Positions 1 through 3,829 of a DNA stretch of 4,033 nt are shown one piece after another. The DNA is from a virus (Duplodnaviria > Heunggongvirae > Uroviricota > Caudoviricetes), in the IMG/VR virus record IMGVR_UViG_2695420699_000010. The stretch is one strand, 5' to 3'. The notes beneath the pieces are model-generated. The model saw only the letters and a list, made by a program, of their open reading frames with translations. It made no database searches and was not told the DNA's origin. Positions within the stretch are counted from its first letter, which is position 1. Each line of letters begins with the position of its first letter. The position numbers were made by a program, and so were the translations under genes.

Positions 1-168
1 CATGACAAAGTCATCGGGCATTATCTGAACATAAAACACTATCAATAAGTTGGAGTCATTACCGAGGCTATCTGCCTCAGGCATGAACACCAAAAGGCAG
101 ATAGAGAAAAGCCCCAGTTAACATTACGCGTCCTGCAAGACGCTTAACATTAATCTGAGGCCCAATCT

Positions 169-381
169 ATGTCTCACAAATGTAGGTTAGCCTCTTACGT
201 GCCGAAAGGCAAGGAGAAGCAGGCTATGAAGCAGCAAAAGGCGATGTTAATCGCCCTGATCGTCATCTGTTTAACCGTTATAGTGACGGCACTGGTAACG
301 AGGAAAGACCTCTGCGAGGTACGAATCCGAACCGGCCAGACGGAGGTCGCTGTCTTCACAGCTTACGAACCTGAGGAGTAA
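169..381 (+). CDS. mok-like in-frame N-terminal extension of the hok reading frame (70 codons); possible regulatory/coupling ORF
   Basis: ATG at 169 preceded by GAGG (157-160) with 8-nt spacing; same frame and same stop as the hok ORF. This mirrors the Mok/Hok arrangement as I recall it for chromosomal hok loci. Whether it is translated is not determinable from sequence. Confidence 0.4.
   Translation: MSHKCRLASYVPKGKEKQAMKQQKAMLIALIVICLTVIVTALVTRKDLCEVRIRTGQTEVAVFTAYEPEE
226..381 (+). CDS. hokD: Hok/Gef family type I toxin (small membrane-active peptide, 51 aa), HokD/RelF-like
   Basis: ATG 226 with AAGGAG (212-217) 8 nt upstream; TAA stop 379-381. Product MKQQKAMLIALIVICLTVIVTALVTRKDLCEVRIRTGQTEVAVFTAYEPEE has the Hok signature: hydrophobic N-terminal helix followed by the conserved TRKxLCEV.R...EVAxF.AYE core. 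Symbol assigned from recalled similarity to E. coli HokD/RelF, not from a search. Confidence 0.85.
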   Translation: MKQQKAMLIALIVICLTVIVTALVTRKDLCEVRIRTGQTEVAVFTAYEPEE

Positions 382-828: not shown

Positions 829-1878
829 GTGCGGGTATTACTTCGACCTGTTCTGGTGCCGGAACTCGGTCTGGTTATCGTTAAGCCAGGCCGTGAATCA
901 ATGTCAGCATTCCATAACGGCAGAATACTGGTGGAGCCGGAACCAAAAAGCATGCGCGGCCTGCCATCCGGAACCGTTCCTGCCGTTCGCCAGCCGCTGG
1001 CGGAAGACAAATCTCTGCTGCCATTTTTCAGCGACGAGCGGGTAATTCGTGCCGCTGGCGGTGCCGGTGCACTGTCTGACTGGTTATTGCGTCACGTTAA
1101 ATCCTGCCAGTGGCCTCATGGTGACTATCATCACAGTGAAATCGTCATACATCGTTACGGCACCGGCGCGATAGTGTTGTGCTGGCACTGTGACAACCAG
1201 CTGCGCGACCAGACATCAGAATCACTCGATCAACTTGCTCAGCAGAATCTGGTTGCCTGGATGATTGACGTCATCCGTCACGCAATAAGCGGTACGCAGG
1301 AGAGGGAGTTATCGCTGGCCGAATTATCCTGGTGGGCGGCCTGCAATCAGGTGGTGGATGCACTACCTGAGGCAGTAGCGCGTCGTTCGCTGGGATTACC
1401 AGCGGAAAAAATCCGCTCCGTATACCGTGAGAGTGACATCGTACCGGGAGAACAGACAGCCATCAGCATACTGAAGCAGCGCACAAAAAATATTGCGCTG
1501 CCACTTCACGTCCACCAGCAACAAAATCCATCACAGAAAAAAACGGTTGTCAGTATCGCCGTTGATCCGGAGTCTCCTGAATCGTTCATGAGGCGGCCTA
1601 AACGTCGCCGTTGGGTTAATGAGAAATACACGCGCTGGGTAAAGACACAGCCGTGTGCGTGTTGTGGTAAGCCAGCTGACGATCCGCATCACCTGATTGG
1701 TCATGGTCAGGGGGGGATGGGAACAAAGGCCCACGATATTTTCACGCTACCGTTGTGCCGGGAACATCACAACGAACTTCATGCTGACCCGCTGGAGTTT
1801 GAGAAAAAGTACGGCTCTCAGGTTGAGTTAATTTTTCGTTTTCTTGAGCACGCCTTTGCAACTGGCGTGCTCGGGTAA
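829..1878 (+). CDS. DUF968-like prophage protein (YdfU-like) with C-terminal Cys/His HNH-like zinc-binding motif, 349 aa
   Basis: Long uninterrupted ORF. GTG 829 with GGAGG (820-824) 4 nt upstream and overlapping the upstream stop (TAATGTG); alternative start ATG 901 (MSAFHNGR...). C-terminus QPCACCGKPADDPHHLIGHG...LPLCREHHNELH (nt ~1651-1790) is a CxCC...HH...C..HH pattern. Position between replication genes and rusA/Q is typical of nin-region genes in lambdoid phages. Confidence 0.85.
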   Translation: MRVLLRPVLVPELGLVIVKPGRESMSAFHNGRILVEPEPKSMRGLPSGTVPAVRQPLAEDKSLLPFFSDERVIRAAGGAGALSDWLLRHVKSCQWPHGDYHHSEIVIHRYGTGAIVLCWHCDNQLRDQTSESLDQLAQQNLVAWMIDVIRHAISGTQERELSLAELSWWAACNQVVDALPEAVARRSLGLPAEKIRSVYRESDIVPGEQTAISILKQRTKNIALPLHVHQQQNPSQKKTVVSIAVDPESPESFMRRPKRRRWVNEKYTRWVKTQPCACCGKPADDPHHLIGHGQGGMGTKAHDIFTLPLCREHHNELHADPLEFEKKYGSQVELIFRFLEHAFATGVLG

Positions 1879-1890
1879 AAGAGGTGACTG

Positions 1891-2250
1891 ATGCTCATAG
1901 ATTTGGTTTTACCTTACCCGCCGACGGTGAACACTTACTGGCGACGCCGTGGCAGCACATATTTTGTATCAAAAGCCGGGGAGCGTTATCGCCGGGCAGT
2001 GGCGCTTATTGTTCGCCAGCAGCGACTGAAATTAAGCCTGTCCGGACGGCTGGCAATAAAAATTATTGCAGAGCAACCGGATAAGCGCCGCCGTGACCTG
2101 AACAATATTCTGAAAGCACCGCTGGATGCGCTGACGCACGCGGGGTTGTTAATGGACGATGAGCAGTTTGATGAAATCAATATTGTACGTGGCAAGCCAG
2201 TATCTGGTGGACGGCTGGAGATAAAAATTACAGAGGTGGGGTGTGCATGA
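1891..2250 (+). CDS. rusA: Crossover junction endodeoxyribonuclease RusA (Holliday junction resolvase), 119 aa
   Basis: ATG 1891 with AAGAGG (1878-1883) upstream. Product carries the RusA hallmarks: N-terminal LPYPPTVNTYW, central PDKRRRDLNNILKAPLDALTHAGLLMDDEQ (catalytic Asp cluster), and C-terminal GGRLEIKITE. These parallel E. coli RusA (...[30 protein letters not shown]...GGRLELTITE) as recalled. Confidence 0.93.
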   Translation: MLIDLVLPYPPTVNTYWRRRGSTYFVSKAGERYRRAVALIVRQQRLKLSLSGRLAIKIIAEQPDKRRRDLNNILKAPLDALTHAGLLMDDEQFDEINIVRGKPVSGGRLEIKITEVGCA

Positions 2251-2936
2251 ATAACCAGTATTTACAGTTTGTTCGTGAGCAACTCATGATTGCCACTGCG
2301 GATCTCAGTGGGGCGACAAAAGGTCAACTGGAAGCCTGGCAGGAAAATGCCCTGTTCGATACAGGGCGTTACAGACGCAAAAAAATTCGTTACCGCGATG
2401 AGGTAACCGGAAAAATGATCACGCGGGATAATCCCCCAATCCCGGGTAAACAATCACTGGCGAAAGGCTCATCAATTGCCCTGGTCAGTCCTGTTGAGTT
2501 TGCAACATCATCGTGGCGGCGTACCCTTCTGGAACTGGAAGAACATCAGAAGGCGTGGTTGTTGTGGTGTTATGGCGGAAACATTTGCTGGGAGCATCAG
2601 ATCGCGATAATGCAGTGGGTGTGGAATGAATTTAAAACTCAGTCTGGTACCAGAAAAATTGCAGTGAAAACGCTGGAGCGTGTGAAGAAGTTGATCTGGC
2701 TGGCGGCACAGGATGTCAGAGGATGGGTTACCGGGTGTGAGGTCTACCAGAGACAGGAGCTTGCCAGACTGTGTGGAGTTAAGCCTGATAACTGGAGCCA
2801 TAATTATGCGAACTACTGGCGTGAGATGTGCGATATTTTTAAGCGCCTCGATAGAGAATCCTTGATTTGCTCCGTGAAAATAAGAGCGCAACAAAAAGCG
2901 ACCTTTTCACGACGAGATATTGCAAAAGTCAATTAA
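2247..2936 (+). CDS. Putative late-gene antitermination protein Q (lambdoid Q-type), 229 aa
   Basis: ORF immediately after rusA; ATG 2247 overlaps the rusA stop (ATGA), with GAGGTG (2234-2239) upstream; alternative GTG 2241. Followed within 90 bp by a promoter-like element and a strong intrinsic terminator, the canonical Q / pR' / tR' layout. Assignment is mainly by synteny and size; I could not confirm the Q family by motif. Confidence 0.72.
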   Translation: MNNQYLQFVREQLMIATADLSGATKGQLEAWQENALFDTGRYRRKKIRYRDEVTGKMITRDNPPIPGKQSLAKGSSIALVSPVEFATSSWRRTLLELEEHQKAWLLWCYGGNICWEHQIAIMQWVWNEFKTQSGTRKIAVKTLERVKKLIWLAAQDVRGWVTGCEVYQRQELARLCGVKPDNWSHNYANYWREMCDIFKRLDRESLICSVKIRAQQKATFSRRDIAKVN

Positions 2937-2948
2937 ATCGCGTATGTT
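2920..2948 (+). promoter_or_regulatory. Candidate late promoter (pR'-like) overlapping the 3' end of the Q gene
   Basis: TTGCAA (2920-2925), 17-bp spacer, TATGTT (2943-2948); predicted start near 2955. A second -10-like TATAAA sits at 2952-2957. Sequence-only prediction. Confidence 0.3.
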
Positions 2949-2997
2949 TCGTATAAATCTGATATTTTGCCTATTTTGTACGCGATGGCAAAGTAAG

Positions 2998-3025
2998 AAA
3001 AAAACTGCCGCCAGGCGGTTTTTTT
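2998..3025 (+). terminator. Strong intrinsic terminator (tR'-like) downstream of Q
   Basis: A7 (2998-3004), stem CCGC (3008-3011) / loop CAG / GCGG (3015-3018) with flanking G-T closure, then T7 (3019-3025). The A-run/T-run symmetry makes it potentially bidirectional. Confidence 0.7.
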
Positions 3026-3071
3026 ATGTCCGAAAATCGCGTCAGTACAGTAAACGCGCTGGCGGCGGTGA

Positions 3072-3366
3072 ATACCGGTCTTTCAGCTTGCTGGCTTTTT
3101 CGACAAGAGTTATTGGTGTGTCACGTTAACCGGAAAAAGGAAAGTTTGAGAAACGCGATCTGGCACAGGCGGTTATTAATGCTGCCTACCTGGTGGCCTG
3201 TGCAGATGGTGAATGTGAGGCTTCCTAGAAATCGAAGATCGAACAGGTACTGCGTAATCAGCCTGCGCTGTCCGCGTTTACGTCAGAAATAATTGAGCCG
3301 GAAGAGCGCAAGGTGCTGGAAGAGATTGCCGGTGTTCTGGGTCTTCGTCTGGAGAATCACCTGTGA
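3072..3366 (+). pseudogene. Decayed TerB-like (tellurite-resistance TerB domain) gene: frameshifted, with an in-frame amber stop
   Basis: One frame gives ...AGFFDKS... (3072-3149). The next frame gives GKFEKRDLAQAVINAAYLVACADGECEAS, then TAG (3226-3228), then KSKIEQVLRNQPALSAFTSEIIEPEERKVLEEIAGVLGLRLENHL, stop 3364-3366. The FFDK start, the hydrophobic-A-x-ADG-x-x-x-x-E core and the C-terminal acidic-E..IA..LG pattern resemble TerB as I recall it. No single intact frame exists. Confidence 0.4.
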
Positions 3367-3494
3367 CGGTAAAACTGCGCCTGACTGTGGCTGCACTCCT
3401 GCTGTTTCTGGTGGTGATGGTGGATTTCACCAGCAGAATCATGTCGGTGCTGGCGGATGGGGTGCTGGTCTGCGGCATTGTGGTATTGCTGTAG
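3363..3494 (+). CDS. Hypothetical 43-aa hydrophobic (membrane) peptide, GTG start overlapping the upstream stop
   Basis: GTG 3363 overlaps TGA 3364-3366 (GTGA); GGAG (3351-3354) 8 nt upstream; stop TAG 3492-3494. Product VTVKLRLTVAALLLFLVVMVDFTSRIMSVLADGVLVCGIVVLL is almost entirely hydrophobic, consistent with one or two transmembrane helices. It is absent from the supplied ORF track, most likely because of its short length. Confidence 0.35.
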   Translation: MTVKLRLTVAALLLFLVVMVDFTSRIMSVLADGVLVCGIVVLL

Positions 3495-3711
3495 CCGGTG
3501 ATAAAAAGAAACAGCCTGCATAATGCTTGATTTTTTTATTTGCTGTTTATTAAAAACACTTCTGCATGGTGAATCCCCCTGTGCGGAGGGGCGACTGGTG
3601 TAGGTAGCATTTATTATGTTATAGGCAAGCCGACGCGGGTTCAGTGACACCGGCTGAATTCACCGGGAGGCACCCGGCACCATGCAAGAAAAAGAATGTG
3701 CATGCAAACAT

Positions 3712-3736
3712 GCCCCTCTCCGGAGGGGCTTTTTTT
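3712..3736 (+). terminator. Intrinsic terminator (+ strand)
   Basis: GCCCCTC (3712-3718) / loop TCCG / GAGGGGC (3723-3729), a perfect 7-bp GC-rich stem, followed by T7 (3730-3736). Confidence 0.65.
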
Positions 3737-3742
3737 ATGGGT

Positions 3743-3768
3743 AAAAAATGCCCGAATGGGTTCGGGCA
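3743..3768 (-). terminator. Intrinsic terminator (minus strand), convergent with the + terminator at 3712-3736
   Basis: On the + strand: A6 (3743-3748) then a perfect 8-bp stem TGCCCGAA (3749-3756) / loop TGGG / TTCGGGCA (3761-3768). On the minus strand this reads hairpin followed by UUUUUU. Confidence 0.5.
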
Positions 3769-3803
3769 ATAGCATGAGATACTGATATTGTTGTGTTGTT
3801 ATC
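3743..3803 (-). ncRNA. Candidate small RNA (~60 nt) on the minus strand, antisense to the late-region leader
   Basis: Minus-strand promoter-like element: -35 TTGCGC (+ coordinates 3834-3839), 18-bp spacer, -10 TAAAAT (+ 3810-3815). Predicted transcript AUAACAACACAACAAUAUCAGUAUCUCAUGCU is A/C-rich and unstructured, then ends at the minus-strand terminator hairpin plus U6 (3743-3768). Purely predicted. Confidence 0.25.
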
Positions 3804-3829
3804 GTGTGGATTTTAACCAGGGTTTATCA

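Follow-up and report, generated by a model that had tools for sequence, protein, structure and literature searches.

A truncated tciB (DUF3927) allele beside a tciA remnant in the late-regulatory region of an Escherichia coli lambdoid prophage

The late-regulatory region and its features

The stretch of viral DNA considered here, referred to as the window, is 4,033 nucleotides long and represents the late-regulatory region of an Escherichia coli lambdoid prophage with a mosaic structure. Its features are collected in Table 1. No end-to-end match to the window is present among the complete E. coli genomes of RefSeq, the best match reaching 98% coverage at 95.6% identity, and no tRNA genes lie in the window.

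Table 1. Features of the window, with positions counted along the whole 4,033-nucleotide stretch
Feature	Position	Strand	Basis
hok/sok type I toxin-antitoxin locus	53–381	+	Rfam sok and Pfam HOK_GEF
sok RNA	53–231	+	Rfam, 84 bits
Hok ORF, 70 aa, in the Mok/Hok frame	169–381	+	Pfam HOK_GEF, E 3e-23
DUF968 gene	829–1878		
rusA	1891–2250		
Antiterminator gene Q	2241–2936		Pfam Phage_antiter_Q, E 1.3e-82
Strong Rho-independent terminator between Q and tciA	3007–3026	+	Terminator scan
tciA (TerB-like) pseudogene remnant	3141–3366	+	Alignment with the tciA of STEC299 and JLK-2012
GGAG Shine-Dalgarno-like motif, 8 nt 5' of the tciB GTG, within the last tciA codons (L-E-N-H-L)	3351–3354	+	
Truncated tciB/DUF3927 ORF, 43 codons plus amber stop	3363–3494	+	ORF list, Pfam, PHROG, dN/dS
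Premature amber of tciB, TGG to TAG at Trp44	3492–3494	+	DNA alignment with relatives
Former tciB tail codons (PVIKRNSLHNA) and original TGA stop, now untranslated	3495–3530	+	Equal to the tail of the 55-aa allele
STnc100 sRNA (RF02076)	3538–3742	+	Full-length Rfam match, 154 bits (gathering score 47)
AgvB	3743–3804	-	Full-length Rfam match to RF02702, 96.5 bits (gathering score 56)
DUF1737/SASA esterase gene, 5' end only in the window	starts 3956		Neighbours by comparison with related prophages

The true small hydrophobic toxin encoded in the window is that of the hok/sok locus on the 5' side. Further downstream, the segment from the Q stop to the terminator (2946–3026, + strand) gives sub-threshold Rfam matches to isrK (19 bits) and AgrB (25 bits), and it lies where lambdoid phages have their short pR'-tR' leader transcript. 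Judging from its position, the terminator that closes this segment would be the equivalent of tR', and tciAB would thus head the Q-dependent late transcript. The old ATG of the tciA remnant, at 3026, abuts the T-tract of this terminator.

Two small RNA genes follow the tciAB remnant. The 3' end of STnc100 coincides with a terminator at 3712–3729, and its 5' end lies 8 nt past the ancestral tciB stop, so that a promoter of STnc100, if there is one, would overlap the untranslated tail of tciB. AgvB, a prophage-encoded anti-GcvB sponge sRNA with its own terminator (3768–3749, - strand), converges on STnc100; the match to AsxR at the same site is weaker (43 bits, below the gathering score of 63).

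The 43-codon frame and the DUF3927/TciB family

A sequence-only reading of this DNA had singled out a 43-codon frame that starts on the stop of a TerB-like remnant, is preceded by a well-placed GGAG and encodes an almost purely hydrophobic peptide, and the frame is present exactly as described, both in the sequence and in the ORF list. Its GTG start (3363–3365) overlaps the TGA (3364–3366) that closes the TerB-like frame, giving GTGA, and its translation, (M/V)TVKLRLTVAALLLFLVVMVDFTSRIMSVLADGVLVCGIVVLL*, has a GRAVY of 1.95. A length of 43 codons alone means little in a window that holds 45 ORFs of at least 30 aa, and the RNA fold around the start shows nothing beyond shuffled controls (z = 0.96).

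The frame is recognizable as a member of a real gene family because of its Pfam match, its PHROG match and its frame-specific conservation. Pfam assigns it to PF13064 (DUF3927) with 46.1 bits against a cutoff of 25 (E 4.8e-12), and PHROG places it in family 1470 (E 2e-21), which is labelled 'TciB-like inhibition of cell division or resistance to colicin'; these are its only matches in the two collections, and no holin family is among them. The peptide is 57% identical to TciB of phage P1 over 37 aa and 81% identical to TciB of JLK-2012. When the 43-aa protein was compared with phages and plasmids by tblastn, the low-complexity filter masked its first hydrophobic half, so that only residues 21–43 aligned and only the annotation names were taken from the search. 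The pair in JLK-2012 is annotated as tciA/tciB, and 'TciB' appears in 434, 2B8 and others. An identical 43-aa protein is deposited in NCBI as 'DUF3927 family protein' (e.g., BDQ70617.1), and RefSeq carries a 'DUF3927 family protein' (WP_001344632.1) at the equivalent position in related prophages, beside a pseudogene that is labelled 'tellurite resistance TerB family protein' and has an internal stop. Judged by its sequence, the frame is an already catalogued DUF3927/TciB member and no new gene; its earlier description as unannotated holds for the ORF track used in that reading and not for the public databases.

When 1.84 billion representative proteins were searched with a profile, the family comprised 118 representatives at 50% identity, nearly all of them 50–58 aa in length. 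Comparison of the window copy with the moderately diverged copies of JLK-2012 and a proteobacterial MAG gave a dN/dS of 0.19–0.20 in the tciB frame and values above 1 in four of the five other frames, the exception being the codon-aligned antisense mirror frame (0.26–0.29). The DUF3927/TciB family is under purifying selection across lineages. Within the close E. coli lineage, the polymorphism (12 DNA alleles, with about seven nonsynonymous or nonsense changes against two to three synonymous ones) is roughly neutral, the diversity being too small to separate relaxed from purifying selection. Across an alignment of 41 sequences, D21 is invariant and F22, S28 and D32 are each at least 90% conserved, and these residues, as well as the basic residue 6, are kept in the window copy. 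The hydrophobic segments of TciB span residues 7–20 and 26–47, approximately, with basic residues flanking them, and both are retained in the 43-aa product. For the 55-aa allele, AF2 predicts one continuous helix (residues 3–54, pLDDT 90), a model that neither confirms nor excludes a two-segment hairpin.

In every relative examined, the family member lies directly 3' of a gene for a TerB-domain protein of about 145 aa. In both P1 and JLK-2012, tciB lies directly 3' of a TerB-like tciA with overlapping stop and start codons, and the intact TciA of JLK-2012 (143 aa) matches Pfam TerB with an E value of 2.9e-16. The same organization extends to remote members, three of which (P0185, P0211 and P0194) each adjoin and overlap an upstream TerB-domain gene of 144–158 aa, while in a fourth (P0249) the contig ends within the overlapped upstream gene, whose identity is therefore not readable. 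Three other family representatives (P0172, P0205 and P0217), which looked like TerB-DUF3927 or other fusions, were rejected as frameshifted or chimeric gene calls and do not constitute Rosetta-stone evidence. In all relatives checked, the tciB start overlaps the upstream stop, be it as GTGA, ATGA, TGATG or by 1–11 nt. The GGAG is conserved within the close lambdoid lineage and absent in the remote relatives, which have the stop/start overlap only, and most of the latter lack any recognizable Shine-Dalgarno motif. This universal overlap, together with the general lack of a Shine-Dalgarno motif in remote members, indicates termination-reinitiation as the ancestral route of TciB synthesis. Pfam, PHROG and the gene order in relatives thus agree with the part of the sequence-only reading that took the frame for a genuine gene for a small hydrophobic protein and for the downstream partner of a TerB-like gene.

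In P1, the tciA, tciB and tciC genes lie in the ban operon, which is repressed by C1, and the phage forms plaques without the tciAB pair. In both JLK-2012 (L003, 2549–3543) and P1 (L005, 849–2509), tciA-tciB is located just downstream of tRNA-Asn and tRNA-Thr genes, an adjacency that points to a common tRNA-tciAB cassette moving between unrelated phage types.

Lesions in tciB and tciA and their distribution

The window copy of tciB ends at L43, and all 40 other members of the 41-sequence alignment run 7–21 residues beyond this point. The residue at position 44 is a tryptophan in 26 of these 40 and aromatic in 33, P45 is present in 34, and position 48 is Lys or Arg in 29. A full-length member is 50–58 aa long and carries the aromatic-Pro-x-x-Lys/Arg motif followed by a polar tail, both of which lie beyond the end of the window copy. 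From its sequence, the window tciB is a family member by descent and a truncated allele devoid of the (W/F)PxxK basic tail, and its 43-aa product would most likely be non-functional or at best hypomorphic. Since the codons after the amber still equal the tail of the 55-aa allele, the nonsense mutation appears to be recent. The sequence-only reading had regarded the partner gene as the decayed one; tciA is indeed a pseudogene, and tciB has itself lost its tail.

The tciA remnant carries three lesions: its start codon and about 17 codons at the 5' end are replaced by unrelated sequence, an amber (GAG to TAG, 3226–3228) interrupts the frame 135 nt before the tciB GTG, and an in-frame deletion of 156 bp (52 codons) lies at about 3290/3291. 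Both inactivating codons of the tciAB pair are ambers (TAG). The 156-bp deletion is also found in E. coli O111:H8 strain 8E (L001); its absence from the other loci with an amber tciB marks it as a later, lineage-specific step of decay. With tciA devoid of a start codon and interrupted by an amber 135 nt upstream, ribosomes are unlikely to reach the GTGA by termination-reinitiation, and the ancestral translational coupling between tciA and tciB is probably broken in the window. As the upstream translation is gone, any expression of the 43-aa ORF would rest on the GGAG alone. The earlier argument from coupling signals to genuine translation thus holds for the overlap, which is conserved throughout the family, and fails for the window copy, where only the GGAG is left.

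The tciB lineage occurs in 696 of 5426 complete E. coli genomes, with a median of 6 and up to 10 copies per genome and about 3,770 sites in total. Among 699 matching records, an exact copy of the amber allele is present in 96 and an exact copy of the TGG allele in 609, and in the loci retrieved, codon 44 is TGG in 77 of 88 close copies. Counted by contigs, the 43-aa allele of the window (T8) is found on 214 and the 43-aa A8 allele on at least 992. The occurrence of the tciB amber on both the T8 and A8 backgrounds implies that the mutation either has recurred or has been carried from one co-resident prophage to another by gene conversion. The amber of tciA (CEAS*K) is present in 51 of the 92 loci examined, where it occurs with at least two different tciA 5' ends and beside different types of Q gene. 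Taken together, the distribution of the tciA and tciB ambers suggests either that gene conversion has spread them through co-resident prophages or that the genes have been inactivated repeatedly. An intact tciB stands next to an amber tciA in 41 of 80 IMG/VR loci, and the reverse combination, an amber tciB next to an intact tciA, is seen in locus L094. Given that the amber alleles are common, occur on two backgrounds and include the arrangement in L094, there is no obvious sign that truncated TciB is being purged, and it may retain some activity. A scan of genome contigs for the tciB locus returned two loci, too few for a taxonomic survey.

Proposed role of TciAB and comparison with known systems

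The reading that we regard as probable is that the ORF is a truncated tciB allele inside a decaying accessory ("moron") module, tciAB, with which the Q-dependent late transcript begins, and that its product is most likely non-functional or hypomorphic. Normally, TciB would be a helical inner-membrane protein of 50–58 aa and the obligate downstream partner of TciA, a small soluble TerB-domain protein. In intact modules, where the tciB start lies on the tciA stop, TciB would be made by termination-reinitiation and hence in step with TciA. Gene linkage, coupling and analogy make it most likely that TciB serves as an inner-membrane anchor to which TciA is bound. In lambdoid prophages, tciAB comes first among the cargo genes that follow Q and its terminator and would be expressed once late transcription sets in, and the lesions in both genes of the window suggest a module in decay. 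Studies of related elements place tciAB among accessory genes: tciA, tciB and tciC of P1 were non-essential in a genome-wide CRISPRi screen (PMC10695390), the tci genes were named by homology only and their operon is found in some P1-like elements and not in others (PMC9603915), and tciA/tciB of D6-like prophages were described as morons of the tRNA region, without a functional test (PMC6799933). No experiments on TciB function were found in the literature searched.

According to the sequence-only reading, the peptide is a candidate for a membrane-active toxin, a holin or antiholin modulator, or a superinfection-exclusion factor. A 43-aa factor of this kind, translated independently and no longer in need of TciA, would be in keeping with the well-spaced GGAG of the ORF, its extreme hydrophobicity, its position in the leader of the late operon downstream of Q, and the wide spread of amber alleles, and the intact tciB copies that stand beside an amber tciA could mean that tciB has independent value. 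However, Pfam, PHROG and PADLOC do not relate the ORF to Hok/Gef, to holins or to known defence families: in PADLOC-DB, the TciB of the window, the TciB of JLK-2012 and the TciC of P1 are without a match, and intact TciA gives only a marginal match to PDC-S48 (E 0.003). No Rfam match overlaps 3363–3494, be it to an antisense RNA or to another RNA family. Moreover, the invariant partner across the family is TerB, with coupled translation, and not a lysis gene, the window copy is devoid of the conserved tail, the polymorphism of its lineage is roughly neutral, and the real holin of the relatives is a separate class II holin further downstream. We therefore consider a stand-alone factor unlikely, and the roles proposed for it receive no backing from these searches.

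It is likewise improbable, in our judgement, that the recurrent nonsense alleles reflect selection, a leaky TerB-like module expressed from many co-resident prophages being harmful and hence switched off repeatedly, or, alternatively, that tail-less TciB has gained a stand-alone activity at the membrane. If either were true, tciAB would have a real physiological activity at the start of late transcription.

Slightly less probable still is that the truncated TciB works in the normal TciAB pathway by pairing in trans with the intact TciA of other prophages in the same poly-lysogenic genome. The numerous copies per genome would provide the opportunity, strains with an amber copy also carry intact ones (e.g., E2863), and the conserved core residues are kept in the 43-aa product. 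On the other hand, tciB translation is normally coupled in cis to tciA, a drive no longer available to the window copy. Furthermore, the absent WPxxK tail belongs to the better conserved portions of family members, and a truncated tciB would be redundant in a genome that also carries intact ones. Finally, the idea of a chance open frame without coding history, which the many ORFs of the window might suggest, is refuted by the significant Pfam and PHROG matches, the 118 family representatives and the frame-specific dN/dS of about 0.2.

As a damaged copy of a catalogued family in a module that is apparently decaying, the window tciB is itself of little weight. What gives the locus a modest wider interest is tciA-tciB as a conserved, translationally coupled two-gene cassette, which is located directly behind Q in many Shiga-toxin-type prophages as well as in the ban operon of P1, and whose name rests on homology to tellurite-resistance genes. 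The question worth asking is what intact TciAB does, and it is the intact copies, rather than that of the window, that are suited to experiments.

When compared with known systems, the ORF resembles the Hok/Gef type I toxins in being a small hydrophobic peptide encoded by a prophage, but it has no HOK_GEF match, no sok-like antisense RNA and no mok-type arrangement, and its partner is TerB. Class II holins (PF04971) are likewise small late-operon proteins with two hydrophobic segments; the ORF, in contrast, shows no sequence match to them and is not adjacent to an endolysin gene. In relatives, a class II holin is encoded about 2.7 kb downstream of tciB, after the SASA esterase gene, so that the lysis cassette forms a separate unit.

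The ter operons, which are associated with resistance to tellurite, phages and colicins, offer a different parallel, as the gene of a soluble TerB-domain protein lies there beside that of a membrane protein, TerC, as in tciAB. TerC, an integral-membrane protein, has been reported to form a complex with TerB (as stated in PMC11003894, citing Turkovicova 2016), and this complex is the analogy behind the anchoring role proposed for TciB. The parallel has its limits, since TerC spans the membrane several times whereas TciB is about 54 aa long and without sequence similarity to it, tciAB comes without terZ, terA, terC, terD and terE, and the literature searched reports no phenotype of tciAB with respect to tellurite, colicins or phages. 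With regard to TciB of P1 (P1_gp075) and the DUF3927 proteins of lambdoid phages, the window copy differs in stopping at codon 44, before the (W/F)PxxK tail, and in having a pseudogene as its tciA partner, and, relative to P1, the window holds no tciC-like third gene. Nevertheless, it shares with them the position after a TerB-like tciA with overlapping stop and start codons, the N-terminal basic residues, and the conserved D21, F22, S28 and D32.
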